From Candidatus Fimenecus sp. (GTDB taxonomy: Bacteria > Bacillota > Clostridia > Oscillospirales > Acutalibacteraceae), in NCBI GenBank assembly GCA_045594885.1, contig JAZNZJ010000026.1, positions 3,754-67,753 on the forward strand: a stretch of 64,000 nucleotides of DNA, given 5' to 3'. The notes beneath the pieces are model-generated. The model saw nothing but the letters and a program-made list of their open reading frames with translations, did no database searches and had not been told where the DNA came from. The position numbers and the translations under genes are program-made. Positions 19,249-53,152 of the stretch are shown one piece after another (the first letter of the stretch is position 1; each line of letters opens with the position of its first letter).

Positions 19249-19842
19249 TTATTCTCCTAAATATTTCGGTAATTCTTCTACAAATTTGCGGAGGGCATTT
19301 CCGCGGTGACTGACCTTATCTTTTTCTTCTGCTGAAAGTTCGCCGAAAGTCTTGTCACCTACTAAAAATAACGGGTCATAACCAAATCCGCCGTTGCCGT
19401 GGACCTCGTGTGCGATAACACCCTCGCAAGTGCCACGAACTGTGAAGCTTCTTCCGTCGGGGAAACAGCAACATACACAGCTTACAAATCTTGCTGTTCT
19501 TTCACTATCGGGAACATCTTTCATAAGTCCCAACAACTTTTCGTTATTCTTCACATCGTTTCCGTGTTCACCGCCAAAACGAGCAGAATAAACACCGGGG
19601 GCACCGTCAAGGTAATCAACCATAAGTCCCGAATCATCTGCAACACAGACCATTCCACTTTCTTTGCAACCGCTATCCGCCTTTAAAAACGCATTTTCTT
19701 CAAAGGTTTCGCCTGTTTCGTCAACGTCAGAAAGTTCAATTCCCGCCATATCGGCAGTAAGTACATTTATACCAAGCGGTGAGAGTATTCTTTGTAATTC
19801 CACCTGTTTTTTCATATTATGAGTTGCGATTAAAAAGTCCAA
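19249..19842 (-). CDS. rdgB: dITP/XTP pyrophosphatase (RdgB/Ham1)
   Basis: IATHN.KK..E N-terminus, GFGYDP and SHRG motifs. Confidence 0.9.
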   Translation of the reverse strand: MDFLIATHNMKKQVELQRILSPLGINVLTADMAGIELSDVDETGETFEENAFLKADSGCKESGMVCVADDSGLMVDYLDGAPGVYSARFGGEHGNDVKNNEKLLGLMKDVPDSERTARFVSCVCCCFPDGRSFTVRGTCEGVIAHEVHGNGGFGYDPLFLVGDKTFGELSAEEKDKVSHRGNALRKFVEELPKYLGE

Positions 19843-20971
19843 AGAAACCCCTCTTTTTCTTTTCTTTCTTAGTGTCTTCTGAAGAATTTATCTCTTCTTC
19901 CTGCTCATATCCTTGGTCATCTGCTTCGGGAGTGACTTCAGACTCTCCACTGTCTTCATCGGTGTTTTCTTCTTGTAAAACAACTTCAACAGTTTCTTCG
20001 TATTCTTCTTTGTTCTCTTCCACAATTTCAAGTTGAATGTCCTCCTCTTCTTTGTAATCTATCTTATCAAATAAGCCGTCGGCAAATGCTGATGGTTTAA
20101 AGGGTTGCAAATCGTCAATCTGTTCACCCACACCGATAAACTTAACTGCAATATCAAGTTCATTCTTGATAGCCAAAACCACACCACCACGTGCAGTACC
20201 GTCAAGCTTTGTAAGTACAATACCCGTAATGTCGGCAACACTCTTAAATTCACGAGCCTGATTAACTGCATTTTGACCCGTCGTTGCATCAAGCACCAAC
20301 AATACCTCACGGTCAGAGTATGGCAACTCACGGTCAATAACACGGTAAATCTTATTAAGCTCATCCATAAGATTTTTCTTATTATGAAGACGACCTGCAG
20401 TGTCAATAATGATGATTTCACTATCTCTTGCCTTTGCTGCGTTGATTGTGTCAAAAACTACTGCCGCAGGGTCCGCACCCTCTTTATGCTTGACAATATC
20501 AACACCTGCACGGTCCGCCCAGATTTGAAGCTGGTCGATAGCAGCGGCACGGAAAGTGTCTGCCGCGCCAAGAATTACACTCTTACCCTGTGCTTTATAC
20601 ATAGCCGCCATTTTACCGATTGTTGTAGTTTTACCAACACCATTTACACCGATTACGAGAATGATTGAGGGCACTGTAATAAGACCCATATCCTCGCCGC
20701 CGTAAAGCATTTCGGCAACAATCTCTTTTATTTTTTGACGGATTGCTTCGGCACCTTTGATTTTGCCCTTTGCTACCTCGTCACGAAGTCTTTCAGTAAT
20801 TTGAACAGCAGTTGTAACACCAACGTCACCCATAACAAGAATTTCTTCAAGTTCTGTATAAAGGTCGTCAGTTACCTCTTCATCGAAGCTATCGAGCATA
20901 TCATCGATAGCACCTGCCATTTTGTTTCTTGTCTTTGTAAGACCAAAGTTAATCTTTTTGAAAATTCCCAT
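19817..20971 (-). CDS. ftsY: Signal recognition particle receptor FtsY with unusual acidic C-terminal extension
   Basis: NG domain motifs GVNGVGKTTT, DTAGR, TKLDG. ATG at 20971 (MGIFKKINFGLTKTR) has an SD-like AAGGA upstream. An extra 81 aa lie C-terminal to the normal end. Confidence 0.9.
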   Translation of the reverse strand: MGIFKKINFGLTKTRNKMAGAIDDMLDSFDEEVTDDLYTELEEILVMGDVGVTTAVQITERLRDEVAKGKIKGAEAIRQKIKEIVAEMLYGGEDMGLITVPSIILVIGVNGVGKTTTIGKMAAMYKAQGKSVILGAADTFRAAAIDQLQIWADRAGVDIVKHKEGADPAAVVFDTINAAKARDSEIIIIDTAGRLHNKKNLMDELNKIYRVIDRELPYSDREVLLVLDATTGQNAVNQAREFKSVADITGIVLTKLDGTARGGVVLAIKNELDIAVKFIGVGEQIDDLQPFKPSAFADGLFDKIDYKEEEDIQLEIVEENKEEYEETVEVVLQEENTDEDSGESEVTPEADDQGYEQEEEINSSEDTKKEKKKRGFFGLFNRNS

Positions 20972-38976: not shown

Positions 38977-38990
38977 TTATCAAATATTTA

Positions 38991-39019
38991 ATGCGGAGTT
39001 AATAGCTCCGCATTTTTTG
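38991..39019 (+). terminator. Intrinsic terminator after the vanY-like gene
   Basis: atgcggag-ttaatag-ctccgcat followed by tttttgc. Confidence 0.7.
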
Positions 39020-39020
39020 C

Positions 39021-39050
39021 ATTTAAAAAGCCACTCACGAGGAGTGGCTT
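39021..39050 (-). terminator. Intrinsic terminator closing the 39.07-52.65 kb operon
   Basis: 9-bp stem aagccactc-acgag-gagtggctt, followed on the minus RNA by uuuuaaau. Confidence 0.65.
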
Positions 39051-39070
39051 TAATTATTTAAAATATTAGA

Positions 39071-40699
39071 TTAGATTGCGGGCTGTTCTTCCTCTTCTTC
39101 ATCATCCTTCTTGCGTTTAAAGAGGATTATGATGAATAAGAACAAGCTAAGCACCATTGTCAGACCTAATGTAACGGGGTTTTGGAACAAATCTGCAAGA
39201 GTATCTGGGTTAGGTATAATCGGTACGTCCTTTTTAGGTCCGCCGATTGTAATAATAACACCGTCGTTATCTTTATCTTTGTCACCACCGTCATAATCAT
39301 CTATATGACCATCGCCGTCTTTATCAGGGTCCTTATCATCAGGAATTCCGTCATTATCGTCATCGGGGTCGGTAACATCGGGGTCGCCGTCACCATCAGT
39401 ATCGACGTCGGGGTGGTCGGGGTCATCCTTATCGGGAATACCGTCGCCATCATCGTCGTCATCTTTGTCATCGGGGATTCCGTCATCATCCTTGTCATCA
39501 TCGGGGATTATTTCGCCATCGGGAAGCCCATCGTTGTCATCATCGTCATCTTCACTGTCGAGAATACCATCACCGTCTGTGTCACGTTCGGGACTATCTG
39601 GGTCGTCCTTATCAAGAATGCCGTCATTGTCATCGTCGTCATCCTCATTGTCGGGGATGCCGTCGTTGTCGTCATCGTCATCTACCTTGTCAGGAGTGCC
39701 GTCACCGTCTGTATCACGGTCGGGATGGTCAGGGTCATCCTTATCGGGAATGCCGTCATTGTCGTCATCGTCATCCTTATCATCGGGGATGCCGTCATTG
39801 TCGTCATCGTCGTCATTTCTGTCAGGAATACCGTCATCGTCTGTATCTCGATTAGGGTGGTCAGGGTCATCCTCATCCGGAATTCCATCGCCGTCATCAT
39901 CGGGGTCAGGAATTATATCATCATTGTCACCATCGGGGTCAACATCTCCGGGATTATCAGGGTCACCGGGGTCAGTTTTGTCCGGGTCTTGGTCCGGAAT
40001 TCCATTACCGTCGTTATCTACAATGTGAAAATCAAGATAAATAACCTTTGTTCCCTCAGGAACAAGAACTACCTGTGTGCCGTCCGATGCCTCTGTAAGA
40101 GTAATTTCATCAACTTCATCTGTAAATTCAACAACAAATGCTGTGTTTGAAAGCACTTTGTCATCTTTTGCGATTGTAACGAAATGCTTTCCTTCAGAAA
40201 TGTCTTCAACCTTGTAACGACCGTCATCATCAGTAGTAGCAGTTGCACTACCAAAATCAAAGCTCATAGTAGCATCTTTAAGCTCTTTGTCGCCTAAATA
40301 CACGGTACCTTCCATATCAGCCTTTTGGCAATCATCATTGGGGTCGTCCGAACATTTTTTAAAGGTAACATCAACATTAGTATCAGTAACAATATCACTG
40401 ATTTTCAGATTTCCGTTGACATATTCATCTGTAACATCAACACCATTTACAGTAATGGAATCTAAATGATAACCATTTTCTGTAAAGACGCCAAGGTCGA
40501 TTTCACCAAATCTGTCAATTTTAAATTGTGTTCCGTCAGCACATATTTTGCCGTTAACAAGAACAAAACCACCGTCGTTGTAATTGATTGTTACATTGTG
40601 TTCAAATGGCACAACTGTACCAATCTGTGTTGCAAAACTGGGAATAGCCGTAGCTATGAGCATTGCAATAACAACAACAATACTAAATACTTTTTTCAA
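39071..40699 (-). CDS. Membrane-anchored surface protein with CarboxypepD_reg-like domain and thrombospondin type-3-like Ca-binding Asp repeats
   Basis: TTG start 7 nt after GGAGGTG. Signal peptide ...AIPSFA. Segment GTVYLGDKELKDATMSF...TTDDDGRYKVEDISEGKHFVTI. About 250 aa of DxDxDGxPDxxD repeats. C-terminal TM segment LGLTMVLSLFLFIIILF, then KRKKDDEEEEE. Confidence 0.75.
   Translation of the reverse strand: MKKVFSIVVVIAMLIATAIPSFATQIGTVVPFEHNVTINYNDGGFVLVNGKICADGTQFKIDRFGEIDLGVFTENGYHLDSITVNGVDVTDEYVNGNLKISDIVTDTNVDVTFKKCSDDPNDDCQKADMEGTVYLGDKELKDATMSFDFGSATATTDDDGRYKVEDISEGKHFVTIAKDDKVLSNTAFVVEFTDEVDEITLTEASDGTQVVLVPEGTKVIYLDFHIVDNDGNGIPDQDPDKTDPGDPDNPGDVDPDGDNDDIIPDPDDDGDGIPDEDDPDHPNRDTDDDGIPDRNDDDDDNDGIPDDKDDDDDNDGIPDKDDPDHPDRDTDGDGTPDKVDDDDDNDGIPDNEDDDDDNDGILDKDDPDSPERDTDGDGILDSEDDDDDNDGLPDGEIIPDDDKDDDGIPDDKDDDDDGDGIPDKDDPDHPDVDTDGDGDPDVTDPDDDNDGIPDDKDPDKDGDGHIDDYDGGDKDKDNDGVIITIGGPKKDVPIIPNPDTLADLFQNPVTLGLTMVLSLFLFIIILFKRKKDDEEEEEQPAI
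39260..40018 (-). repeat. Tandem coding repeats (four ~44-aa units, each built of shorter DDDDDNDGIPD modules)
   Basis: Units of the form DPDHP(N/D)RDTD(D/G)DG.PD...DDDDDNDGIPD..DDDDDNDGI.DKD, visible as GAT/GAC-rich near-repeats in the DNA. Confidence 0.8.
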
Positions 40700-40748: not shown

Positions 40749-41285
40749 TTACGGAGTAGTTTTACCGCTATCGTAAACCACTGTGAATGTAAGTGTATCT
40801 CTGTATTCGCCAACCGGTTTACCTTCAAAGCTTGTAATTGCTACTTTAACATTTTTGCCGTCTATTACATTGGGGGCTGTTGTATTTGCAGGGTTAACTG
40901 CATCGAAAGTAACTGCACCGCCACCTGTAATAGTATAATCTAATTCTTCAGCTGTGCCGTCAGCTTTCATTTTGCCACTACCTGAAACAGAAATTGTAAG
41001 AGATGCACCAATAAGAAGCTGTGACTCAACTTTATAAGTCATATCGTGTTCATCTTTATTGTTCCAAGGAATACTTGTATCCGCCGGAATTGTAACAGTA
41101 TATGACCAGTCTGTGTTCTCATCAAAAGTTGTATAAACATCTGCTGTACCTGTCTGAGCACCTGTTGAAGCATCAGGAGTTGGTTCAGCCTGATTAATTT
41201 GTGTTTCGGTCGCTGCCGCAAATGCAGGAACCGCAATAGCCATCATCATTACGATAGCCATTAATAAAGCAATAATTTTTTTCAT
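40749..41285 (-). CDS. Small secreted beta-rich protein, tandem paralog P1 of 11
   Basis: Signal peptide MKKIIALLMAIVMMMAIAVPAFA. Family motifs YTVTIPADTSIPW, SQL..G, LDYTI, YRDTLTFTVVY. Confidence 0.8.
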   Translation of the reverse strand: MKKIIALLMAIVMMMAIAVPAFAAATETQINQAEPTPDASTGAQTGTADVYTTFDENTDWSYTVTIPADTSIPWNNKDEHDMTYKVESQLLIGASLTISVSGSGKMKADGTAEELDYTITGGGAVTFDAVNPANTTAPNVIDGKNVKVAITSFEGKPVGEYRDTLTFTVVYDSGKTTP

Positions 41286-41324
41286 AATAATTTACTCTCC
41301 TTTAATGGAGCAGTCAAATCTTAA

Positions 41325-41801
41325 TTAAACGATTTCTGCTGTGAATGTAAGAGTATCTGTGTAAGCATCAACAGGAACTGTTAACCAAGCTGCATTTGAT
41401 GTATCAATAGTAACTGTATCAACTTTGTCAACTAACACTTCTTCAGTTGCTGTGAATGTAGCATCTGTGATTGTATAAGCAAGAGTAGCTGTTGAGCCAT
41501 CCTTTTTCATAAGATATTCATCATCTGCGTCAGCAACAGAAACCTTTACAAAATCATCTGTTGCAAGCTGACTGTTGATTGTGTATTCAATTTTTGTTGT
41601 AGTTGCTTCCCAATAAATTTCCTGAGTTGCAGGAATTGAAACTGTGTACCAAGTTGGGTCACTGCCGTCTTCTTTTACTGTCTTTGTGTTAATAATTGTA
41701 TCGTTACCTGCGTTTGAACCGCCTTGAACTGCTGCAAAAGCAGGAACTGCGATAGCCATCATCATTACGATAGCCATTACTAATGCTAAAATCTTTTTCA
41801 T
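41325..41801 (-). CDS. Small secreted beta-rich protein, tandem paralog P2
   Basis: MKKILALVMAIVMMMAIAVPAFA; YTVSIPATQEIYW; LAYTI; AAW...YTDTLTFTAEIV. Confidence 0.8.
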   Translation of the reverse strand: MKKILALVMAIVMMMAIAVPAFAAVQGGSNAGNDTIINTKTVKEDGSDPTWYTVSIPATQEIYWEATTTKIEYTINSQLATDDFVKVSVADADDEYLMKKDGSTATLAYTITDATFTATEEVLVDKVDTVTIDTSNAAWLTVPVDAYTDTLTFTAEIV

Positions 41802-41822
41802 AACGTTTTCTCCTTAAAAATT

Positions 41823-42302
41823 TTATACCAGCTCTGCTGTGAATGTTAATGTACCACTGTAATTATCAATTGAAGCTTCTTCCCAATTTGAAGTGGGAAT
41901 GTTCACCTTTACCGCTGATGTTTCGGGTGACGATGCTAAAATTACTGATTGTTTAGTGGTATATGTTGTATCACTTAAACCATATTTAAGTGTTGCAGTT
42001 TTTGCTTGATTTTTCATAGTGAAACCATCGGCTGATGATACAACAATGCTAACAAGCTTTCCTGTCTGAAGTTGACAGAATATTGAATATTCTACATTGG
42101 TGTATTCCTTTCCCCAAGGAATTTCAACTTCTGCGGGAATGGTCACTGTAAATGAGCCTTCGCCTTTATCTTTTATGCCGTCAACAACAACTTTAGTTGT
42201 TGTTCCTGCAGTACCATTATCATATTGAGTATTGGCAAATGCAGGAATACAAACTGCAAACATCATAACAAGAGCAAGAGCTAATGAAAGTACTTTTTTC
42301 AT
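41823..42302 (-). CDS. Small secreted beta-rich protein, tandem paralog P3 (divergent signal peptide)
   Basis: MKKVLSLALALVMMFAVCIPAFA; FTVTIPAEVEIPW; LKYGL; NW...YSGTLTFTAELV. Confidence 0.8.
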   Translation of the reverse strand: MKKVLSLALALVMMFAVCIPAFANTQYDNGTAGTTTKVVVDGIKDKGEGSFTVTIPAEVEIPWGKEYTNVEYSIFCQLQTGKLVSIVVSSADGFTMKNQAKTATLKYGLSDTTYTTKQSVILASSPETSAVKVNIPTSNWEEASIDNYSGTLTFTAELV

Positions 42303-42326
42303 ATTAAGCCCTCATTTTTAAATCAA

Positions 42327-42794
42327 TTATGCACTAACTACTTCTGCTGTGAAAGAAATCTGTCCTTCATAAACATCATAAGGAACTGCGTCCCAAGCAC
42401 CTGGTGTGATTGTAATGTCAAATTTATGTTCTTCATTTGAAACAACTTCTTTTTCTGAAAGACCGTCTGTTTTGTCTGTTGCAGTAAATTCAATTGATTT
42501 ACCTGCAGCACTTGTCAAATCCTGTGATTTTGCAAGTGTAACCTGAACTTTTTTACCTGAAACGAGCTGACTTGTGATGAAATAAGATGCTTGACCGTTT
42601 GTGTTCCAAGTAAGATTAACTGAAGCAGGAATTGTAACTGACCATGTACCGTCACCAACACCTGATGTACCGTCAACGATAACAGTTGTATCACCTGCTT
42701 TTGTTGCACTATTTAATGAATTAGTTGCAAAAGCAGGAACTGCAATAGCCATCATCATTACGATAGCCATAACGAGTGCTAAAATCTTTTTCAT
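42327..42794 (-). CDS. Small secreted beta-rich protein, tandem paralog P4
   Basis: Start moved to ATG 42794, where the family signal peptide MKKILALVMAIVMMMAIAVPAFA begins and an SD AAAGGAGAT lies upstream. WSVTIPASVNLTW; YEGQISFTAEVV. Confidence 0.8.
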   Translation of the reverse strand: MKKILALVMAIVMMMAIAVPAFATNSLNSATKAGDTTVIVDGTSGVGDGTWSVTIPASVNLTWNTNGQASYFITSQLVSGKKVQVTLAKSQDLTSAAGKSIEFTATDKTDGLSEKEVVSNEEHKFDITITPGAWDAVPYDVYEGQISFTAEVVSA

Positions 42795-42828
42795 AATATT
42801 AATCTCCTTTATCTCTATTGGAATCAAC

Positions 42829-43326
42829 TTAAACAGCTGAGTAAACAACTGTATATGTTACTGTACCCTGATAAACTGCAGGAACTGCCTGGTCGTACTG
42901 TTCTTGTGCAATACTGATTGTAATATCTGTGTCAGGACCTTCGTTATTGTTGATTTCGTTAAATGTTTTTGCGTCAACACCGCCTGCGAGTGTGTATTCA
43001 AGTGAATAGCCTACAGCAACATCACTTGTCATTACAGCACCATTATCAGCAGCAACTGAAACTTTAAGACTTGCGCCGATAGGAAGCTGTGATGTAACTG
43101 AATAGTTAGCATCTTTAGTAGCTGTATCATCCCAAGCAAATGTGAATGATGCGGGATAAGTAACTGTGTAAGTAGCATCTGCATCTGATGTTGTTGTAGC
43201 AACTACTACCTGACCTTTTTGAGAACCGTCAGCTTCTTTTGCTGTATTTTGGTCAATAGCAAAAGCGGGAACTGCAATAGCCATCATCATTACGATAGCC
43301 ATAACGAGTGCTAAAATCTTTTTCAT
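42829..43326 (-). CDS. Small secreted beta-rich protein, tandem paralog P5
   Basis: Same signal peptide; YTVTYPASFTFAW; LEYTL; YQGTVTYTVVY. Confidence 0.8.
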   Translation of the reverse strand: MKKILALVMAIVMMMAIAVPAFAIDQNTAKEADGSQKGQVVVATTTSDADATYTVTYPASFTFAWDDTATKDANYSVTSQLPIGASLKVSVAADNGAVMTSDVAVGYSLEYTLAGGVDAKTFNEINNNEGPDTDITISIAQEQYDQAVPAVYQGTVTYTVVYSAV

Positions 43327-43338
43327 AATATTTTCTCC

Positions 43339-43824
43339 TTATTTCGTCTTTATTGAAACTGTAAATGTTACAAGGTCTGCATAATTATCAACTGAAACCT
43401 GATTCCAATGCTCCGGAAGAATAAGCACATATAAAACGTCCTCAACTTTGGTTTCCGGAATAACAGATTCAGTTAAACTGAAATTACCGTTAAGAAGTGC
43501 ATATGGAATTGCACCATTTACACCGTCTTTTAAAAGGTAATTATTCTGACCTTTTACATCGAAGTCTAAAACTTTTCCTGTTTCAAGCTGACACTCAACT
43601 GTGAATGGAATATAAGTATTTGTTGCACCCCAGTAAATTTCAACCTTTGCAGGAATTGTAACTATATAGTATGCGGCTTCTGTGCCATTCTCTTTTGTTG
43701 TAAGAGTGCAAATGTCTGTATTTGCCACATTATTGTTGTTATCAATTGTATTAGTGGCAAATGACGAAAAGCACATACTAATCAATAAAAGTAAAATTAT
43801 TACGAGAGTTAAAATTCTTTTCAT
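43339..43824 (-). CDS. Small secreted beta-rich protein, tandem paralog P6 (divergent signal peptide)
   Basis: MKRILTLVIILLLLISMCFSSFA; YIVTIPAKVEIYW; IPYALL; HW...YADLVTFTVSI. Confidence 0.78.
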   Translation of the reverse strand: MKRILTLVIILLLLISMCFSSFATNTIDNNNNVANTDICTLTTKENGTEAAYYIVTIPAKVEIYWGATNTYIPFTVECQLETGKVLDFDVKGQNNYLLKDGVNGAIPYALLNGNFSLTESVIPETKVEDVLYVLILPEHWNQVSVDNYADLVTFTVSIKTK

Positions 43825-43850
43825 AATCTTACCCCCATCAATTAAGCGAT

Positions 43851-44333
43851 TTAAACCTTATCGCTAAGAGTAGCTGTAAATGTAACATGACTTGAATATT
43901 CAGCGATTGTCTTATTCCAGTCAGCAACTGTGAATGTAAGAGTTTCTGTTTCGTCTGAAACTTCAACATAATCAACATCAACGTCACCTGATACTGTGTA
44001 TTCAAGTGTATCAGCAGTACCATTAGCTGTCATTGTACCTGTAACACCATGTGATGTCTGGTCTGCAACTGTAACATTGAGTTCCTTGCCAACTGCAAGT
44101 TGTGTTATTACTGTGTATGTTACATCATATGTTGGCGCATTCCAAGGAATAACGATTTCTGCAGGATATGTAACTGTATAAGTACCTGCACCAACTGCTG
44201 TCGTATCTGTCGTAACAAGAACATTATCATTCTGATTTGCTCCGCCAACTTCTGAAAAGCTACCTGCGAATGCGGGAACTGCAATAGCCATCATCATTAC
44301 GATAGCCATAACGAGTGCTAAAATCTTTTTCAT
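43851..44333 (-). CDS. Small secreted beta-rich protein, tandem paralog P7
   Basis: Family signal peptide; YTVTYPAEIVIPW; LEYTV; DW...YSSHVTFTATL. Confidence 0.8.
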   Translation of the reverse strand: MKKILALVMAIVMMMAIAVPAFAGSFSEVGGANQNDNVLVTTDTTAVGAGTYTVTYPAEIVIPWNAPTYDVTYTVITQLAVGKELNVTVADQTSHGVTGTMTANGTADTLEYTVSGDVDVDYVEVSDETETLTFTVADWNKTIAEYSSHVTFTATLSDKV

Positions 44334-44368
44334 AATATTTTCTCCTAAATGAAAATTAATTTTAAAAA

Positions 44369-44860
44369 TTAAATGTCAACGATTTCTGATGTGAATGTAA
44401 GAATATCTTTGTATTCGTCGAATGATGCTCCATCCCAATTTGGTTTTGAAACATCAACACTAAAGCTGTATGTTGCGTCAGTTTCAGTAGCTAAAACAAC
44501 GGGTCTTGTTGTTTTTGCAGTTGTTTCGCCGCTAAGTGCGTATGCAAGTTTTGCACCGCCTGCATTAACCATTTCAAAACCATTTGCATCTTTGTCAATG
44601 ATTGCAACAGAAACGCATTTACCTGTCTTAAGCTGTGATGTAATTGAATACTCGAAGCTTGTGTTTTCATCGCCCCATGTAAGAGCCATTGTTGCAGGAT
44701 AAGTAACTGTATAAGTACCTTCGCCAGCAACACCAGAAATATCTGTAACAACTTCTGCGTCGCCTGATTCGTTACCAACTTCAAGAGTTGCTGCAAATGA
44801 AGGAACTGCAATAGCCATCATCATTACGATAGCCATAACGAGTGCTAAAATCTTTTTCAT
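44369..44860 (-). CDS. Small secreted beta-rich protein, tandem paralog P8
   Basis: Family signal peptide (VPSFA); YTVTYPATMALTW; LAYAL; NW...YKDILTFTSEIV. Confidence 0.8.
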   Translation of the reverse strand: MKKILALVMAIVMMMAIAVPSFAATLEVGNESGDAEVVTDISGVAGEGTYTVTYPATMALTWGDENTSFEYSITSQLKTGKCVSVAIIDKDANGFEMVNAGGAKLAYALSGETTAKTTRPVVLATETDATYSFSVDVSKPNWDGASFDEYKDILTFTSEIVDI

Positions 44861-44892
44861 AATATTTATCTCCTTTTTAAATTAACTAACAA

Positions 44893-45396
44893 TTAAACGA
44901 TAGCTGCTGAGAATGTAAGAATATCTGAATATGTACCAACGATTGCTCTGTTCCAAGCATCTGCTGTGATGTCAACAGAAATAACTTTTTCTTCTTTTGG
45001 ATAAGTAACTGTTGCAAAGTTTACTGCTGTGTCACCTGTAAGTGCAAAATTGAGGTCAAGATTAACATTTTCTTCAGGAGAATATGTCATAACATTGTCT
45101 GAACTTGCAACTGCAACGTCAAGTGTTTTGCCATAGAGAAGGTGTGCTTCAACGAAATAGCTCATTGGAGTTGCCTCTGAGCCCCAATAAATTGTTGTAT
45201 CTGCAGGAATTTCAACTAAATACCAGTCGCCGTCGCCATCTGGAACACCGTCACCATTTTCATCTTTCTGTGTGCTTGTAGTGATTGTAACGTCACCTGA
45301 CTGACCGGGTTTTACGTTAAGGTCAGCTGCGAATGCGGGAACTGCGATTGCCATCATCATTACGATAGCCATAACGAGTGCTAAAATCTTTTTCAT
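44893..45396 (-). CDS. Small secreted beta-rich protein, tandem paralog P9
   Basis: Family signal peptide; YLVEIPADTTIYW; LNFAL; AW...YSDILTFSAAIV. Confidence 0.8.
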   Translation of the reverse strand: MKKILALVMAIVMMMAIAVPAFAADLNVKPGQSGDVTITTSTQKDENGDGVPDGDGDWYLVEIPADTTIYWGSEATPMSYFVEAHLLYGKTLDVAVASSDNVMTYSPEENVNLDLNFALTGDTAVNFATVTYPKEEKVISVDITADAWNRAIVGTYSDILTFSAAIV

Positions 45397-45435
45397 AATA
45401 TTTATCTCCTTTAATTAACTTATAGTAAACAGCAA

Positions 45436-45918
45436 TTATACTGTAACGATTGATGATGTATAAGTAAGGATGTCGCTGTACTCTTCAACAACTGCTGTGT
45501 TCCATGTAAGGTCATCAACAACAACTTTGAGTTCTACATTAGCTGCAGGATAAACATTAGCAGTAGCTGTTGTGTAATTTACAGTACCATCAAGTGCGTA
45601 AGCGAGTTCATAAGCACCATCTGCAGTTTTCATAGCACCATTACCTGCAACTGTAACATTTACTCTGTTGTTTCTTGTAAGGTGAGCTTCAACTTTGTAA
45701 GAAACGTCTGTTTCAGCTTCGCCCCAAGGAATAACTGTGTCTGCAGGAATTGTAACGATGTACTGTTCTGCATCATTACCATTTTTGTCTTTTGTATCTG
45801 TGCTGATAAGAACATCACCAGCCTCTGAAGGCTTTACTGTAAGGTCAGCTGCGAATGCGGGAACACAGATAGCGAGCATCATAACGAGTGCAAGTGCGAT
45901 TGAAATTACTTTTTTCAT
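45436..45918 (-). CDS. Small secreted beta-rich protein, tandem paralog P10 (P3-like signal peptide)
   Basis: MKKVISIALALVMMLAICVPAFA; YIVTIPADTVIPW; LAYAL; TW...YSDILTYTSSIV. Confidence 0.8.
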   Translation of the reverse strand: MKKVISIALALVMMLAICVPAFAADLTVKPSEAGDVLISTDTKDKNGNDAEQYIVTIPADTVIPWGEAETDVSYKVEAHLTRNNRVNVTVAGNGAMKTADGAYELAYALDGTVNYTTATANVYPAANVELKVVVDDLTWNTAVVEEYSDILTYTSSIVTV

Positions 45919-45955
45919 AACTGTTTTCTCCTTTATATCAAGATTAATTTACTAT

Positions 45956-46417
45956 TTAAACAGCATCAATATATTCAATAGTGAATGTAAGAATATCACT
46001 ATGTCTGCCTGATGCCGCCTGTAACCATTGTGCTTCTGTAACACTTACAGAAAGAGGAATTGCCTTGCCGTATTCACCGGGGAAGAAAGAGATGTCCTCT
46101 GCTCCCAAAAGAGCATATTCAATGGTACGCTTTGAATCGCTTGAATTTACAAGCTTATAGTCGTTTTCGGAACTAACCGAAACCTTAACTTTTTTGGCAG
46201 GTTCAATAAGCATTTTTTCTGCTTTTACCTCACCGATTCCCATAGAAGCTGTCATCCACGGGATTTCCACATCCGCTGGGAACGATAACACATAGTCAAC
46301 ATCTGCTTTTGTGGAAATTTCCATTGATTGTTCCAACGCAAAAGTTGGAACTATGCAAAGCAAGAGCATAACGAGTGCAAGACCTGCGGATAAAGCTTTT
46401 TTCATATAAAACATCAT
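45956..46417 (-). CDS. Small secreted beta-rich protein, tandem paralog P11 (shortest, divergent)
   Basis: (MMFY)MKKALSAGLALVMLLLCIVPTFA; YVLSFPADVEIPW; IEYALL; QW...HSDILTFTIEYI. The start could be 46417, 46414 or 46405. Confidence 0.75.
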   Translation of the reverse strand: MMFYMKKALSAGLALVMLLLCIVPTFALEQSMEISTKADVDYVLSFPADVEIPWMTASMGIGEVKAEKMLIEPAKKVKVSVSSENDYKLVNSSDSKRTIEYALLGAEDISFFPGEYGKAIPLSVSVTEAQWLQAASGRHSDILTFTIEYIDAV

Positions 46418-46428
46418 CTCCTCCCTTA

Positions 46429-49400
46429 TTATGTACCGTCGTCATAAATGACGGTATAAGTCAATGTCGTTCTGTACTCACCAAGTGCCGCTGCGTCCCA
46501 ATCCTCTTGACTGATTTTAACCTCAGGCTCATCCGTGGGCTTGGTAGCGGACGAAATATTTGTTGTAAATACAGTTTCTTTGAAATTGTATGCGGTATAT
46601 TCAATAGCATTATCGCCATTCATTAACTTACCTATGTTAGTTGCAGTATTGAAATTACCTGTATTATCTGCAACGTCAACGGTAAGAGTACCACCATTAA
46701 GAGATGCATTTTCTATTTCATAAGAAACACTCTTGTTTGCTGTGTCGTCCCAATCAACTGCCAAATCAGCAGGGATTGAAACAGTATAATAAATTGGGTC
46801 GGAACCATTTGTTGAAACGAACATAACGGGAATTTCAACTGTTGATACAGGTTCAAGTGTTGCCATATCAACACCGTCAGTAATCAAAGCACTGTCAAAT
46901 GCCATAAGAGTTACTGTACCTTCATATTGGTTACCCGTAGGAACTTTCTTTGCCTTTGCTTCATCAACTGAGATTTCAGGGGCAAAAGCACTTGTTACTC
47001 CGTTTGCATAATCACCAAGTTTAGTGTAAGTAACCGTTCCGTCAGTTCCCGTTGAACCGTTTACATTAAAGTATCCGAAATTATAAGCAGTTCCGCCTGT
47101 CTGTGTCCACTTGTAGTCAGTAACAAGGTAAACACTTACGGTTCTGTTAAGTCTTGCCGCAACATAGGTCAGATTTGCATCTGCCGTATCAAGATAAAGC
47201 GGGTGTTCATCGGAGTTTGTAAGAACTACCTGTTCACCGTCTGCTTTACCAAGGTCCGCCGTCGGCAAGAGAAGTGCAAGTTGAACGTAATCGTAGTTAA
47301 GCTCGTCAACCAAAGCATAACGTCTTAAGAATGCTTCGTACTGACCTAAACAATACTCAATTTCATTGAGTGTAGGTGTATCAAGTACGGTTCTTGCCGT
47401 AATCTTTGCACTGACGTCTGTATATGCGTTTTCGAGTCGGCGTTCATAGGTAATAATACCGCCCTCAACCGCAGCACCGGCATTTGGTGTAATTGCCGTT
47501 GAGTTATCGTGGATAGCCTCTGCCGCATCATACATATTCATATAAGCCGCCGCAACGTCGGTATCATCACTTAAAAGCTTTTTACCGAAAACACTAATAT
47601 CGGCATACATATCTGTGTAATATCCGAGAGCATTTACGGTGTTACCGTCAGCATCTGTAGTAGTTCCTGCGTACTTAACAGTTCTCAACTCGTTGTCGGA
47701 GTCTTCAGTATCAGGAATTCTGTCGGCATCATCGTCAGTATGTGAACTCAAACCGTAAATCCTTATAATGTTATTCTTAAAGGTTTCAACGTTCGCTATA
47801 ATACCGTCTTTTTCAACACCCTCGTGGACATCTGCGTCACCGCCAATCAAAACTGCACGCCGTGCCGCATTATAGGCATTTGTCAATCTGTTGAAATCAT
47901 AGTCTGTAATTGAGGCTCTGTCATCCATGCTCAAACGGTGATAACCTTTTTCGTACATATCTATAACTGATTGAGCTTCTTCAATACTTGTAAATCCAAG
48001 AGCTGTTAAATAGTCATCTTTATGAGTTTCGTACAAGTCTAACAAGGTTTCTTCGGCTGTGGAATATTCTTTCGCCGTTTCTGAAATCGCACCCAATGCC
48101 GTCAGCAGATTTTCTGCTGCAGTACCGTCGGCTGTTGCCGTATAAAGCGGTCGCCATTGTTCTTTTTGAATCTCATTAGTATAATCCCTGTAAAGGTTTC
48201 TATATTTTGCTTCAAGCAATGTTTCATAACAGTATTTTACTTCCGGAATTGTTTTCTGATAATCAGAAAGAGCCAAATAAGCATCTATGCACCTATCAAA
48301 AGAAGCTTTAAATTCTGCCTCTGTTGCATATGGGTCGATAGTTGAAACCATCTTTTCGAAGTTACTTGAGTCAACCGTTTTAACTCCGAAGTATTCGTCC
48401 ATATTCTTAACAGTAATACCGTTGTCTTGATTAAGTTCGCCATTACAGTCTGTATTATTACTTACACGGTTTGTACAAGCAGGGTCATAAGTAAAGCCAA
48501 GACCGTCAATTGTTAAATCTTTGCCTACGTTAGCACCTGTATAATCCCAGAATGTAATTTTTGCTTGTTTGATTTTATAACCATCATCAAGAAGATTATC
48601 AAAAATATAATAATCCATTCTTAATGTACCTGGTTTAGGTACACGGAAGTTTGAAAGAGGAATACGAATAAATCCTTTATATCCTTCCAGTTTGTTAAGT
48701 GACGACGGTGCAATTGAACAAAGAGCTTTTGCATTATCATCGCCGAACCAAGCGGAGTTGTCAAGTGCTGAAGATGAAAGGTTTTGAGCTTCCCATTCAC
48801 CATTTTCATCAAGCTGATAAATAACAGGTGTATCACTGAGGGTACCACCACAGAAATAACAGTTAACGTCGTTACCGCTTGAATCCTGAAGAATGAACTT
48901 AATATTCATATTCACTGCTTCAACATTGGTAAAGTCAACATACATAACAAAGGAGTTAGGAATTACACCTGCACCATATCTTGTTACATCTTCTGCGTCA
49001 GTTCCGTTTGTACTATCTGTCTTAACAGCGAGCGCACTCAAATCAAGTCCGGGAAGATTTCCCCAAGTATCTGCCTCTGCACCAAGATAGGTAGTCGAAA
49101 GTGTTGCAAGCTTTACATCACTCGACGAATTAAGGTCGCCGTTGATATTTATTGTTGCACCAAGCGAATCAGCAAAGCCCTTATTTGTAATCTGTGCATC
49201 CATTCTTGAGAAATATGTTCCCGCACTGTTATCAAGAGTTTCACCCGTTGGTCTGAAATCAGCCGGTGACCAACCAATGGCTTCACCAATCGCTGCAGAT
49301 TGGTTAATTGTTTTACTTGAAACATATGTTGTAAAATTACCCGTACTGTTTACGTCAGTAGCTTTACTGTCTTCATATGCCGGGTAATCATCATAATACA

Positions 49401-51753
49401 TATCGGACATCTGACCAAAAGTATAATTTTTCTCAAAGTCATTGAAAGGAATGTACGGATATGCACCAATTGACTGACCTGTTCTTACCTCTTCACCCAT
49501 AACCAAGTCATAAAGCTCAAGGAACTTTTCTTCTGATTCCTTACCCAACAACTCATAGTGAGAAAGGTTGAAGGTTTCATAAATTGCCATTAACTGTTTA
49601 AGAGTACCCTGCAATTCTTCGTCTGTATGACTTGCAAATTCTGCAGTAGGAAGTCCCTCAACAGTATTTTCAAAATAGATAACCGCATTATAGTTTGACT
49701 CGGCATTTTCTGAATAAACATACTCAACAAACTCTTCTGCATCTTTATAACGATTGTAAGCATCGGTATGACCAAGAGCTTTTAGCTTCTCGATTGCCTG
49801 TGAAACCTTTTCAGCATCTGAAAGAGCTGAATCCTTAGCAATACCGAAACATTCAATATAATTAAGAATAATGTCGTCAACCAAATCCTTGGCTGTCAAG
49901 TCATTAAGTGAAGGAATTTCACCAAAGTACTGCATAATGTATTCTGCAACAGCCTTTGGAACCTGAACAGTTCTGTCGTAGAAGCCTGACATTTTTCTAC
50001 CAAGGTCCGCTGTACCACTACTATTAACAGTAGCACCTTCTTGTGGGAATTTAATTGCTGATGCATCTGTTACGTAACCCGCACTATCGAACGTACCACC
50101 TGTGTTTTTCTGACAGAACATAACCTGGTCAATGTAGAAAGATTTATGAACTGACTCTGCCGTCCACTCTGCAACCTGAACACCCGCTGAAACAAGGTCT
50201 TCAATCGCAGTAAGGGGGTCGTTAACTGTGAATGTTACTGAACCATCATCTGCATATGTTTCTGTGATATCGCCTTGAGGAGCTTTAAGAGTATTATTCT
50301 TTGTATTACCATTACCCCATGTTTCGCTTCTTTCATAGAGAATAATCACATCTGTTACACAAGTACCTGCAGGATTAATCTTAATTCCGTAACCGGATTG
50401 GCTCGCTGCATATGGTTCTGCTGTTTTTGTTGTGCCGTCCGGCATAATAAGTTTATCATTTGCTGTAACACTTTCAGAAAGAACATATGCTGCGAGGTTG
50501 TCTGCATTACCCTCAGGAGTATCGCAACCGCCCTTTGCCCAAGATTCCAAAGTTACCGAGCTTGTCATATATTGGTCTTCTTGTAAAATGAAATACTCAA
50601 TCGGAACACGAACAAAACCCTTATAACCTGAAAGATTTGTAAAATAACCATCAGTCATCGAAGTTGATTCCCAAAGGCCATCAGCATTCTGAATATAAAT
50701 ACCTTCACTAACTGTTCCGGCATTTACACCAGCTACAGACACAGTTGAAAAAGTTTTACCATAATGAGAATATTCGTTTTTCTTTGTGTCATCTCTATAA
50801 TGTTCAAAAGATTTCTCGTTAGCCGATAAAGTAAATGCAAATTTATTAATTTGAGCACGGCTTAAATCAACATAGAACCAAACCTCTTCAGCATTTGAAA
50901 AGTCGTAGTGGTTACGGCTCCAAGTAGTTGTCATGATATATGGGGTTCCGTTGTATGCATTAGCTATCCATAAACGATAACCTGCACCGCCATCATAACC
51001 CATACCAGCCATCTGACCATTAACGTCAATCAATTCTGCACTTTGACGTTCAGAGTAGTCCGGACTCGTTGAACCACCATCCGATTGATTGGAATTATCA
51101 ATCTTCGCATTACCTTTCTGTTCAAAAAGCAACATTTCACGAACAACCCAACTCTCATTAGGTGAGAAGTCATCGTTAATAATGTAGTAAGGAGTTTTTG
51201 TGAGAAGTGTATGAATTTTATCTGACACCCAACCGTCGCTGTCAACCGCCTGAATTGATACGTCATAACTCGCATCAACTTCATAATCTTCAAGGCTTTC
51301 AAATGCACCCGGCCAGTAATAGATTGAGTTAGGATAGTTGTTACCCTCTGTGTTATCTACAGAAAAAGTACCTACACGACCATCTGCATTATTCAAATTA
51401 AAGTTTTCTGACCAGATTTCAGTACGAGTACCGTCATCTTCAAGCTTTGTAATGGTCATAACATAACTTGCAATTGATTTCTTTGTAGGTGCTGCCTCTG
51501 TGTAAGTGTTCCACGTTGCCGCCGCATTTGCGTGTGGGAATGCTACACTCAAACTACCGTCAGCATTAAGAGTTGCGATAAAGTTAGTATTGACCGCAGC
51601 CTCATTACTACCGTCACCCCAATAAGGTGCGGGGTCATATGAGCCCTCTCCGACTGCCCCGACCATTAACACGGGGATTGAAGAAACAATCATTATTAAA
51701 CTCATTAAAATCGAGAGTGCTTTTTTAGTGATATTCTTCTTTTTCATTCTCAT
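46429..51753 (-). CDS. Giant (1774 aa) secreted multi-module protein whose C-terminal ~150 aa carry the paralog-family domain (putative adhesin/tip component)
   Basis: Signal peptide MRMKKKNITKKALSILMSLIMIVSSIPVLMVGA. Two duplicated beta-sandwich-like modules ending LSGYKGFVRVPIEYF and LEGYKGFIRIPLSNF. Helical linker segments between modules. C-terminus YYTVSIPADLAVDW...IEYTA...DW...YRTTLTYTVIY. Confidence 0.8.
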   Translation of the reverse strand: MRMKKKNITKKALSILMSLIMIVSSIPVLMVGAVGEGSYDPAPYWGDGSNEAAVNTNFIATLNADGSLSVAFPHANAAATWNTYTEAAPTKKSIASYVMTITKLEDDGTRTEIWSENFNLNNADGRVGTFSVDNTEGNNYPNSIYYWPGAFESLEDYEVDASYDVSIQAVDSDGWVSDKIHTLLTKTPYYIINDDFSPNESWVVREMLLFEQKGNAKIDNSNQSDGGSTSPDYSERQSAELIDVNGQMAGMGYDGGAGYRLWIANAYNGTPYIMTTTWSRNHYDFSNAEEVWFYVDLSRAQINKFAFTLSANEKSFEHYRDDTKKNEYSHYGKTFSTVSVAGVNAGTVSEGIYIQNADGLWESTSMTDGYFTNLSGYKGFVRVPIEYFILQEDQYMTSSVTLESWAKGGCDTPEGNADNLAAYVLSESVTANDKLIMPDGTTKTAEPYAASQSGYGIKINPAGTCVTDVIILYERSETWGNGNTKNNTLKAPQGDITETYADDGSVTFTVNDPLTAIEDLVSAGVQVAEWTAESVHKSFYIDQVMFCQKNTGGTFDSAGYVTDASAIKFPQEGATVNSSGTADLGRKMSGFYDRTVQVPKAVAEYIMQYFGEIPSLNDLTAKDLVDDIILNYIECFGIAKDSALSDAEKVSQAIEKLKALGHTDAYNRYKDAEEFVEYVYSENAESNYNAVIYFENTVEGLPTAEFASHTDEELQGTLKQLMAIYETFNLSHYELLGKESEEKFLELYDLVMGEEVRTGQSIGAYPYIPFNDFEKNYTFGQMSDMYYDDYPAYEDSKATDVNSTGNFTTYVSSKTINQSAAIGEAIGWSPADFRPTGETLDNSAGTYFSRMDAQITNKGFADSLGATININGDLNSSSDVKLATLSTTYLGAEADTWGNLPGLDLSALAVKTDSTNGTDAEDVTRYGAGVIPNSFVMYVDFTNVEAVNMNIKFILQDSSGNDVNCYFCGGTLSDTPVIYQLDENGEWEAQNLSSSALDNSAWFGDDNAKALCSIAPSSLNKLEGYKGFIRIPLSNFRVPKPGTLRMDYYIFDNLLDDGYKIKQAKITFWDYTGANVGKDLTIDGLGFTYDPACTNRVSNNTDCNGELNQDNGITVKNMDEYFGVKTVDSSNFEKMVSTIDPYATEAEFKASFDRCIDAYLALSDYQKTIPEVKYCYETLLEAKYRNLYRDYTNEIQKEQWRPLYTATADGTAAENLLTALGAISETAKEYSTAEETLLDLYETHKDDYLTALGFTSIEEAQSVIDMYEKGYHRLSMDDRASITDYDFNRLTNAYNAARRAVLIGGDADVHEGVEKDGIIANVETFKNNIIRIYGLSSHTDDDADRIPDTEDSDNELRTVKYAGTTTDADGNTVNALGYYTDMYADISVFGKKLLSDDTDVAAAYMNMYDAAEAIHDNSTAITPNAGAAVEGGIITYERRLENAYTDVSAKITARTVLDTPTLNEIEYCLGQYEAFLRRYALVDELNYDYVQLALLLPTADLGKADGEQVVLTNSDEHPLYLDTADANLTYVAARLNRTVSVYLVTDYKWTQTGGTAYNFGYFNVNGSTGTDGTVTYTKLGDYANGVTSAFAPEISVDEAKAKKVPTGNQYEGTVTLMAFDSALITDGVDMATLEPVSTVEIPVMFVSTNGSDPIYYTVSIPADLAVDWDDTANKSVSYEIENASLNGGTLTVDVADNTGNFNTATNIGKLMNGDNAIEYTAYNFKETVFTTNISSATKPTDEPEVKISQEDWDAAALGEYRTTLTYTVIYDDGT

Positions 51754-51794: not shown

Positions 51795-52646
51795 TTATTC
51801 CGCCTCTGCTTCGCTTACCTTAATCTTTGTTGCAACAACCATATTGTTAAGCTTTGTTCTCTGTTGGTCAAATGAATACGGCTGTTGCATTACAACTGCA
51901 TCATATTCACCAACATCAAGTGTTCTCGTAATTGAGAACTTTGAAATTGAATAACCGGGTTGAACAAGCCCCGATTTATAAATCATTTCGTCTGCATCAT
52001 CAATCTTCTTGTTACCGTTTTTATCAAGATAGATTGTGAATTCCATAAAGCAGACACCTTCATTCTTTTTATGGTTTGTAAGAATTACGTTCTGCTCTTT
52101 CTGATTTGCCTTGAAATTCATTTCGGGAATACCGACAATTGTTACATTTTTGTTTGATGTATCAATTTTTGAAGGTAGGTCAAGCTTACCCTCACCAATT
52201 TCGGCATCCGTATCAAGAATTAATGGTGCTGTTGTAGTAGTTGTTTCAGGCTCAGCACCTGTTTTTACAAGATATGCTGTTCCAAGAACCAAAGCCACAA
52301 GTAAAAGCAAACCAAGTAAAGTCCAAAGAATAATTGCACCGATATTATCTTTCTTAACCGCTATAAATGAGCCCGTTTCAAGCTCTATGTAACCAATGGT
52401 CTTATATCTTGAGCCCGATGTTGCTTTATAAACGGTTTCTTCAATTCCGTCAACTTCAATTGTGCCCGCTTCGTCCTTACCGTATTTAAGCTGACCTACA
52501 ACACGAATACCCCCATCAGGATAAAGTGCTTTCATTTCTTTGACGGTGTAATAACCAACCTCAAAGCCGGTATCTTTATTATAGTATGACTCTGTATAGT
52601 CATTTCCTGTTTTAATAATGAATTGTGCCAAAATAAGTTCCTCCAA
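51795..52646 (-). CDS. Bitopic membrane protein, first gene of the operon (N-in, central TM, Thr-rich linker, ~150-aa outside domain)
   Basis: No signal peptide. TM segment AIILWTLLGLLLLVALVLGTAYLV is followed by EPETTTTTAP. The track start TTG 52646 overlaps GGAGG. TTG 52631 (8 nt after GGAGG) is an alternative start. The first in-frame ATG is codon 38. Confidence 0.65.
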   Translation of the reverse strand: MEELILAQFIIKTGNDYTESYYNKDTGFEVGYYTVKEMKALYPDGGIRVVGQLKYGKDEAGTIEVDGIEETVYKATSGSRYKTIGYIELETGSFIAVKKDNIGAIILWTLLGLLLLVALVLGTAYLVKTGAEPETTTTTAPLILDTDAEIGEGKLDLPSKIDTSNKNVTIVGIPEMNFKANQKEQNVILTNHKKNEGVCFMEFTIYLDKNGNKKIDDADEMIYKSGLVQPGYSISKFSITRTLDVGEYDAVVMQQPYSFDQQRTKLNNMVVATKIKVSEAEAE

Positions 52647-52705: not shown

Positions 52706-52734
52706 ATTTTAATACCATTTTTTTCAGTTGTCAA
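52706..52734 (-). promoter_or_regulatory. Candidate SigA promoter of the surface-protein operon
   Basis: Minus strand reads TTGACA (52734-52729), 17-nt spacer, TAAAAT (52711-52706). A second TTGACA at 52792-52787 has a weaker -10. Confidence 0.35.
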
Positions 52735-53090: not shown

Positions 53091-53116
53091 AAAAAAGCGA
53101 GAGTTTCCTCTCGCTT
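53091..53116 (-). terminator. Intrinsic terminator after the SPFH/NfeD operon
   Basis: gcgagag-tttcc-tctcgc, followed on the minus RNA by uuuuuuguu. Confidence 0.7.
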
Positions 53117-53152
53117 TGATTGTTATGACGATTAAAACCGCCCATTGTTAAA

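Follow-up and report, generated by a model that had tools for sequence, protein, structure and literature searches.

The 64,000-nucleotide window from Candidatus Fimenecus sp. analysed here (contig JAZNZJ010000026.1) carries on its minus strand a compact string of genes, from ~52.7 kb to 39.05 kb, that encodes in this order a membrane protein ('up'), a giant secreted protein, eleven small paralogs (P11 to P1) and a membrane-anchored protein ('dn'). We find that the last 138 residues of the giant are a genuine, full-length copy of the small-paralog domain. On balance, we favour the reading that the ~13.7-kb cassette encodes a non-covalently assembled, membrane-tethered surface complex of an undescribed family, which would work in the manner of the WxL/Csc clusters.

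A preliminary description of this DNA, made from its sequence, had dealt with the interval 46429-46900, which corresponds to residues ~1619-1774 of the giant plus the stop codon (the last ~155 codons), and had claimed that this end of the protein copies the small-paralog domain and matches all of its signature blocks. The claim is borne out. A hidden Markov model (HMM) built from the eleven mature small paralogs alone matches residues 1637-1772 of the giant with 68.3 bits (E 3.7e-23), and the match spans positions 11-136 of the 137 positions of the model. The same HMM finds no match elsewhere in the giant, and none among the other open reading frames (ORFs) of the window beyond the eleven small genes. 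Profile-profile similarity could have been absent; instead, hhalign aligns a profile of 36 giant C-termini with one of ~230 small paralogs from 35 loci with a probability of 99.7% and an E-value of 2e-25 over 125 columns. BLASTP with the giant C-terminus also recovers 10 of the 11 paralogs at E <= 0.014. In a multiple alignment, the giant domain is 20-29% identical to the paralogs, while the mature paralogs are 18-46% identical among themselves. The blocks common to both are Y-T-V-T-I-P-A, a first Trp, S-Y-x-V and an L-x-V-x-V strand, followed by L-x-Y-T, a second Trp and a Y-x-x-x-L-T-[FY]-T strand. A second copy of the paralog domain in the penultimate domain of the giant was considered and rejected: its sequence similarity to the paralog domain is not significant (hhalign E 0.013-0.16), and the resemblance is limited to the motif of the last strand.

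AlphaFold2 (AF2) was run on residues 1489-1774 of the giant with an alignment of 42 sequences. The resulting model, with a predicted local distance difference test score (pLDDT) of 92.4, comprises two beta-sandwich domains, residues 1498-1620 and 1637-1774; in this monomer model the C-terminal domain is complete, and its N-terminal strand is placed in cis at high confidence. The top Foldseek matches in the PDB are the CfaB trimer (E 5.8e-6), FimH, CfaE and the FimC/PapD chaperones, with E-values ranging to 5e-4 for CfaB, FimH and CfaE. Template modelling (TM) scores are ~0.3, and generic tandem immunoglobulin (Ig) proteins such as integrins and NCX1 are also among the matches. The model points to an Ig-like, pilin-type sandwich as the fold of the domain, and to nothing more specific. 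A first AF2 model, from a 12-sequence alignment (pLDDT 65), was not relied on: its Foldseek matches to Ena, PliG and Afa/Dr are not significant, and those to Ena, which come from this low-confidence model only, have E > 0.01.

Pfam scans covered eight cassette proteins at E <= 1 and 38 family members at E <= 10, the latter for the 25 most frequent of 49 matched families. For the cassette proteins, Pfam and NCBIfam returned sub-threshold noise only. The 38 family members likewise gave no more than noise in Pfam; one of them has a weak match to Fimbrial_CS1 (E 0.0043) and two have weak matches to DUF4402. Two domain profiles, the giant and 'up' were also compared with the sequences of the PDB, with no match, and literature searches found no description of this cassette.

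The preliminary description also held that the giant domain is closest to P1, at the far end of the array, and not to P11, its neighbour. BLAST bit scores against the giant C-terminus are 61.6 for P1, 52.4 for P5 and 47.4 for P10, as against 30.0 for P11. Profile scores of giant C-termini from other genomes are 85.5 bits for P1, 75.4 for P5 and 45.2 for P11, and with the domain core alone P1 is still on top (83.3 versus 71.3 bits). Identity in the multiple alignment, by contrast, ties P5 (29%) with P1 (28%). For a test at the level of the family, we made a profile of giant C-termini from other genomes (67 non-redundant sequences) and compared it with all small genes of 31 complete loci. The last gene, beside 'dn', is the best match in 22 of the 31 loci, where 4.7 would be expected by chance, and the first gene, beside the giant, is the worst match in 23; as the loci are related, the count of 22 shows one conserved relationship and not 22 independent events. 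With N-terminal segments and C-terminal tails removed, the last gene is still best in 16 of 29 loci and the first gene worst in 18 of 29. We therefore reject the explanation that the affinity is an artefact of P1's longer N-terminus or tail, as it persists with core-only sequences.

In a neighbour-joining tree, the first-position genes come out as a clade (bootstrap 96-100%). The last-position genes also form a clade, which is joined by the window's P5 and is sister to the giants with a bootstrap of only 45%. Given the weakness of this node, the affinity to P1 rests mainly on the profile scores and the shared motifs. Closeness to P1 and not to P11 thus holds in BLAST, in the profiles and at the level of positional classes, and is qualified by the tie with P5 and by the tree.

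These classes can be told apart by their ends. Giant C-termini finish in 'LTYTV.Y' plus a short tail and last-position genes in '[LIM]TYTV.Y.APTTP', while middle genes end in 'LTFTAE[IL]V' and first-position genes in 'LTFTAEYTDAV'. The resemblance between the C-terminal strands of the giant and P1, which had been remarked on from the start, is real, and judging from these endings it is a feature of the class and not specific to the pair: it is a signature common to the giants and the last-position genes. At the other end of the domain, the N-terminal segment of the first class has a median of 17 aa versus 30 aa in the other classes. In the middle and last classes, an N-terminal strand leads into a loop whose length varies; in the giant and the first class, a short turn is found instead.

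The small paralogs are acidic throughout (pI 4.0-4.6), and their number varies from 5 to 11 between loci. The first and last classes are constant and the expansion is in the middle: loci L004, L005, L007 and L009, together with the window, have 9-11 small genes, while L001, L012 and L013 have 5. The window's P5, which ends in 'VTYTVVYSAV', is an internal duplicate of the last class. It should also be noted that the DNA encoding the signal peptides of P2, P4, P5, P7, P8 and P9 (the first 69 nt; 41733-41801, 42726-42794, 43258-43326, 44265-44333, 44792-44860 and 45328-45396) is 91-97% identical among the six genes, whereas the next 51 nt are only 24-47% identical. All six segments encode MKKILALVMAIVMMMAIAVP[AS]FA. 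This looks like the outcome of gene conversion, or of strong selection limited to the signal peptide. A '[VI]P[AS]FA' cleavage region is also present in 'dn' and is kept in other genomes.

The arrangement is conserved well beyond the window. We examined the neighbourhoods of three distant relatives and of 35 distinct loci recovered from a collection of species-representative genomes; all complete ones consist of 'up', the giant, 5-11 small paralogs and 'dn', and are flanked by housekeeping genes that are unrelated between genomes. The operon is a self-contained cassette. Its hosts are Candidatus Fimenecus, Acutalibacter, metagenome-assembled genomes of Ruminococcaceae/Oscillospiraceae and Eubacterium sp. 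CAG:180, from human, chicken, goat and yak guts. One variant of the giant occurs in 84 blocks of a contig index, and the contig shown there is from a human-gut metagenome. The 93 homologues of the giant have 1588-1902 aa and are 24-76% identical to it; they are unnamed or called 'hypothetical protein', with no Pfam domain on any of them. The paralog domain stands at the extreme C-terminus in 92 of the 93; the one homologue that lacks it is, at 1588 aa, comparatively short and possibly incomplete.

A profile was searched exhaustively against 1.84 billion representative proteins, which gave 1207 clusters at E <= 1e-3. Almost all of these are either small proteins (150-180 aa) or giants that end in the domain; the remainder are rare fusions and likely gene fragments. 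Such fragments aside, the domain is always C-terminal. In four fusion clusters (293-473 aa) a signal peptide is followed by BspA-type leucine-rich repeats (LRRs) and then the domain, in one (238 aa) by a ubiquitin-like domain and then the domain, and one more cluster has another passenger. Precomputed Pfam matches identify LRR_5 and ubiquitin (PF00240) in these proteins, which keep the N-terminal strand of the domain internal. The LRR and ubiquitin fusions are orphan genes that lie amid unrelated genes, outside any cassette. Retention as the C-terminal part of unrelated passengers whose genes lie outside the cassette is to be expected of a docking or display domain; judging from this distribution, the domain behaves as a portable C-terminal module.

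Two of the fusions deserve separate mention. The 238-aa ubiquitin-like fusion, P0307 (L041 10001-10717, also L042 2819-3535), is found on 15 contigs; it is a secreted bacterial ubiquitin-like protein of a gut Clostridium, probably displayed on the surface. The LRR_5 fusion P0268 (L039 10001-11389), with relatives P0252, P0263 and P0270, lies on a contig on which sortase and cohesin genes are found as well.

The remaining proteins of the cassette are also without a family assignment. The giant's passenger region, the ~1490 aa that precede its pair of C-terminal beta-sandwich domains, contains no domain recognisable in Pfam, NCBIfam or PDB sequence searches. Residues ~336-405 and ~984-1053 (~50539-50748 and ~48595-48804) have in common 'L.GYKGF[VI]R[VI]P...F' and, ahead of this motif, a segment that contains Trp, which suggests two related beta modules; in a BLAST self-comparison of the giant, this internal similarity falls below significance. 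The 'up' protein begins with a cytoplasmic domain of ~100 aa, which is followed by a single membrane helix and a beta-rich extracellular domain of ~150 aa. It is the most conserved component of the cassette, being 39-58% identical where the giant is only 24-32% identical, and 58% identical in a locus where the giant is 32% identical. Its 84 homologues are all unnamed or at most 'hypothetical protein' (orthologues lie, for example, at L001 9148-9975, L002 8908-9723 and L003 9157-9954), with no Pfam domain, no PDB sequence match and no relatives detected outside the cassette.

The 'dn' protein starts with a signal peptide and two beta domains, continues with a spacer of Asp-rich repeats and ends in a C-terminal membrane helix and the tail KRKKDDEEEE. 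The second beta domain gives recurrent matches to CarboxypepD_reg/SdrD_B-like families, all of them sub-threshold. Orthologues of 'dn' close every cassette; they have 294-667 aa, a range that stems mostly from the variable spacer, and all of them have the signal peptide, the pair of beta domains, the C-terminal membrane helix and a charged tail in which K/R residues precede acidic ones. In the window, the spacer (residues ~228-505; 39185-40018) holds about a dozen D-x-D-x-D-G-x-P-D repeats of the thrombospondin type 3/calcium-binding kind, and this repeat gives rise, as antisense artefacts, to the long plus-strand ORFs 39182-40150 and 39465-40028. The Asp-rich spacer is found in the window's lineage ('dn' of 508-667 aa), is replaced by Pro/Thr repeats in L003 and is absent in L002 (317 aa). 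Within the C-terminal 60 residues (for example L003 ~19940-20118, L002 ~19760-19933, window 39071-39250), 10-12 residues before the membrane helix, distant lineages carry the juxtamembrane motif 'NP[VI]I[ST][KQ]TG[AE][LF]IRE[NY]P', and the window's lineage carries 'IP.PDT[LF].[DE][LF]F.NP' at the same site. The motif of the distant lineages is reminiscent of non-canonical sortase motifs. The 'I[ST]KTG' seen in some 'dn' proteins was considered as a sorting signal and rejected, as TG is not conserved and the window's lineage has 'PDT[LF]' instead.

The analysis shows the homology, the conserved architecture, the positional classes, the reuse of the module and the type of fold; binding partners, assembly topology and the role of the passenger are inferred. 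In the membrane-tethered complex that we favour, the ~135-residue beta-sandwich domain would be a docking module, which in the 5-11 small acidic paralogs makes up the entire mature protein. The giant's ~1630-residue passenger would be held on the cell via its last domain, and the same module would tag the unlinked LRR and ubiquitin-like passengers for the same structure. The 'dn' protein, with its two beta domains, variable spacer and C-terminal membrane helix, would serve as the tether, and the membrane protein 'up' as an assembly factor. Modules probably contact one another by edge-strand or strand-insertion pairing, for which the strand at the N-terminus and the highly conserved 'LT[FY]T' strand at the C-terminus would be used. 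Since the giant domain and the last class share their C-terminal strand and a Pro/Thr tail, they probably occupy the same partner site, for which 'dn' is a candidate; being encoded beside the last gene, 'dn' is indeed the obvious candidate partner.

The closest known design, by analogy, is that of the WxL clusters. In these, a small WxL protein is acidic and consists in its mature form of the domain only, and a large WxL protein carries the domain always at its C-terminus, with adhesive passengers, including LRRs, on the N-terminal side. The third component, WxLIP, has a signal peptide, DUF916 and DUF3324 (two Ig-like domains) and, at its C-terminus, a membrane helix; an AlphaFold prediction has a hairpin of WxLIP inserting beside the WxL domain's N-terminal strand. 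Peptidoglycan binding is also reported for WxL domains. The present cassette likewise has a small, secreted, acidic, domain-only protein, a large protein with the shared domain at the C-terminus and its passenger N-terminal, and a protein ('dn') in which a signal peptide and two beta domains precede a C-terminal membrane helix; both systems have LRR passengers (ElrA of Enterococcus, an LRR-WxL protein, and the orphan LRR_5 fusions here) and gut commensals as hosts. The arrangement expected of a WxL-type system, a C-terminal domain in the large protein and the domain alone in the mature small one, is what we observe.

The layout is alike, yet the family signatures are not found, and several points weigh against the complex that we favour. 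No match to PF13731, DUF916 or DUF3324 was obtained for the eight cassette proteins or among the listed families of the 38 members, so that the WxL parallel is one of analogy. The small proteins of a WxL cluster usually number one to three, whereas there are 5-11 here, and such clusters have no counterpart of 'up'. The best Foldseek matches of the giant domain are pilins and not wall-binding domains, and with the N-terminal strand in cis the monomer model gives no sign of strand exchange. Further differences concern the domain itself and its setting: its two nearly invariant Trp residues (W33 and W117) are followed by D/E/G/N and A/T/V-type residues and not by x-Leu, it has ~135 aa versus ~180 aa in small WxL proteins, the cassette has no LPXTG partner, and the hosts are Clostridia, while WxL/Csc clusters occur in Bacilli (Lactobacillales and Listeria). 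The earlier proposal that the giant is displayed through the shared domain is partly supported, by the conserved C-terminal module and by WxL-like logic, while membership in the families named with it fails wherever it can be examined.

A true pilus-like fibre is the alternative that has to be weighed most carefully, although we regard it as unlikely. The paralogs would then polymerise head to tail by donor-strand complementation, with the giant as a two-domain tip adhesin whose pilin-like domain accepts the strand of the next subunit, as in FimH or CfaE; the first class would be the adaptor, the middle classes the shaft, the last class and 'dn' the base and 'up' the assembly platform, so that gene order mirrors subunit order. 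The Foldseek matches of the high-confidence model to CfaB, FimH, CfaE and FimC/PapD agree with such a fibre, as do the weak matches to Fimbrial_CS1 and DUF4402 and those of the low-confidence single-domain model to Ena fibres, EcpA and Afa/Dr adhesins. The conserved, non-redundant positional classes, the strand and variable loop at the N-terminus of the middle and last classes as against the short turn in the giant and the first class, and the high conservation of the membrane protein 'up' would also be accounted for. Nevertheless, TM-scores are low and generic tandem Ig proteins match too; there is no chaperone or usher among the cassette proteins; no major subunit is evident, the genes being of equal dosage with no internal terminator; the modelled domain is complete with its own N-terminal strand; and in the fusion proteins that strand lies inside the chain, where a donor strand would not usually be. 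The most specific form of this idea, to which we give still less weight, is a heteropolymeric pilus independent of sortase and of chaperone and usher, built by strand complementation in gene order from the giant at the tip through the first, middle and last classes to the membrane anchor, with the shared domain as a universal plug that loads unlinked cargo such as the ubiquitin-like protein and the BspA-type LRR adhesins; we consider it doubtful.

It is improbable, in our view, that the domain is an independent cell-wall-binding module, by which each protein would attach alone to peptidoglycan or a secondary wall polymer with no protein-protein assembly, the small paralogs having ligand-binding or coating roles of their own. 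A position at the C-terminus and reuse with passengers encoded elsewhere are what wall-binding modules typically show, and the peptidoglycan binding reported for WxL domains points the same way; however, this would leave unexplained the 5-11 copies that have no passenger, their conserved classes, and the dedicated membrane-anchored and membrane proteins, and the proteins are strongly acidic and show no similarity to wall-binding domains known to Pfam. That the similarity is a mere leftover of local duplication or fusion, with no present role for the giant, is very improbable. Recombination among tandem paralogs is plausible, and the signal-peptide DNA of six of them is homogenised, but conservation contradicts a relic: 92 of the 93 giants retain the domain at full length, even where overall identity falls to 24%, and it forms a sequence class of its own with conserved class-specific features. 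At the DNA level no neighbouring gene is particularly close to it; identity at the protein level is 20-29%. The docking complex tethered by 'dn' is the reading that we favour.

Membership in the WxL, sortase-pilus, chaperone-usher and Ena/F-ENA systems was considered and rejected on their defining features, although each bears some likeness to the cassette. In chaperone-usher systems, an adhesin such as FimH or CfaE joins an N-terminal functional part to a C-terminal pilin-type Ig domain common to the small subunits, several specialised minor subunits are encoded within one operon, and proteins of these systems are the best structural matches of the giant domain. The giant is ~six times larger than FimH, and no cassette protein matches the PapD or usher families, that is, a periplasmic chaperone or an outer-membrane usher. 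The Clostridia (Bacillota) are classically Gram-positive. TasA/TapA and sortase pili resemble the proposed complex as surface or matrix fibres of Gram-positive cells, with beta-sandwich subunits and accessory anchoring proteins. The cassette contains no sortase gene and no gene for a SipW-type peptidase, and TasA/camelysin is absent among the matches listed. No LPXTG-type signal lies near any C-terminus of the cassette, the only match to the pattern being an internal SPETS in P3. In the F-ENA endospore appendages, the larger F-Anchor protein includes the fibre-subunit domain in a version only ~23% identical, and it is predicted to become integrated by imitating the contacts between subunits; the giant likewise is a larger protein with a copy of the subunit domain. 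F-ENA, however, is tethered to the exosporium and has no Sec signal peptide, whereas here all subunits have Sec signal peptides and the partner is membrane-anchored. The shared domain gave no match to DUF4183 or DUF3992/Enas among the Pfam families listed.

The features of the cassette are collected in the table below. The eleven small genes span 40749..46405 and encode proteins of 149-178 aa each. A hairpin scan of the gene string found no convincing terminator inside the cassette, and the genes that flank it in the window are ordinary (SPFH/NfeD, MatE, VanY).

Table. Positions of the cassette and its elements in the window, in the direction of the minus-strand genes.
Feature	Position	Strand	Remarks
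Terminator-like hairpin of the upstream gene	53094-53117		Precedes the promoter-like site
Promoter-like site TTGACA-17-TAAAAT	52706..52734	-	11/12 consensus positions; consensus match only; upstream of the first cassette gene
'up' membrane protein	51795..52646	-	~278-283 aa (283 aa in the window)
Giant secreted protein	46429..51753	-	1774 aa; N-terminal signal peptide
Giant, penultimate beta-sandwich domain	46894..47262	-	Residues 1498-1620; AF2 model
Giant, C-terminal domain	46432..46845	-	Residues 1637-1774; copy of the small-paralog domain (HMM, hhalign, AF2, Foldseek)
P11	45956..46405	-	First-position small paralog, adjacent to the giant
P10	45436-45918	-	Middle small paralog; signal peptide and one domain
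P9	44893-45396	-	Middle small paralog; signal peptide and one domain
P8	44369-44860	-	Middle small paralog; signal peptide and one domain
P7	43851-44333	-	Middle small paralog; signal peptide and one domain
P6	43339-43824	-	Middle small paralog; signal peptide and one domain
P5	42829-43326	-	Middle position; signal peptide and one domain; groups with the last-position class
P4	42327-42794	-	Middle small paralog; signal peptide and one domain
P3	41823-42302	-	Middle small paralog; signal peptide and one domain
P2	41325-41801	-	Middle small paralog; signal peptide and one domain
P1	40749..41285	-	Last-position small paralog, adjoins 'dn'; class closest to the giant C-terminal domain
'dn' protein	39071..40699	-	542 aa
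Two terminator-like hairpins	38990..39051	+	Directly past the cassette end; consensus match only

Taken together, the cassette follows a known design principle in a new version, and the protein family concerned is unannotated and widely distributed among gut Clostridia. Its hosts are uncultured or barely studied gut bacteria, and no protein of the cassette has a family assignment; the shared module now offers an annotation handle for at least 1200 protein clusters. It also leads to a testable model of how a 1774-residue protein, together with passengers encoded elsewhere, may be displayed on a Gram-positive cell without a sortase, and the ubiquitin-like fusion hints at host-directed functions. 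The cassette would possibly represent a second, independent invention of the WxL-type design or, if distant homology were shown, an extension of that design from Bacilli to Clostridia.

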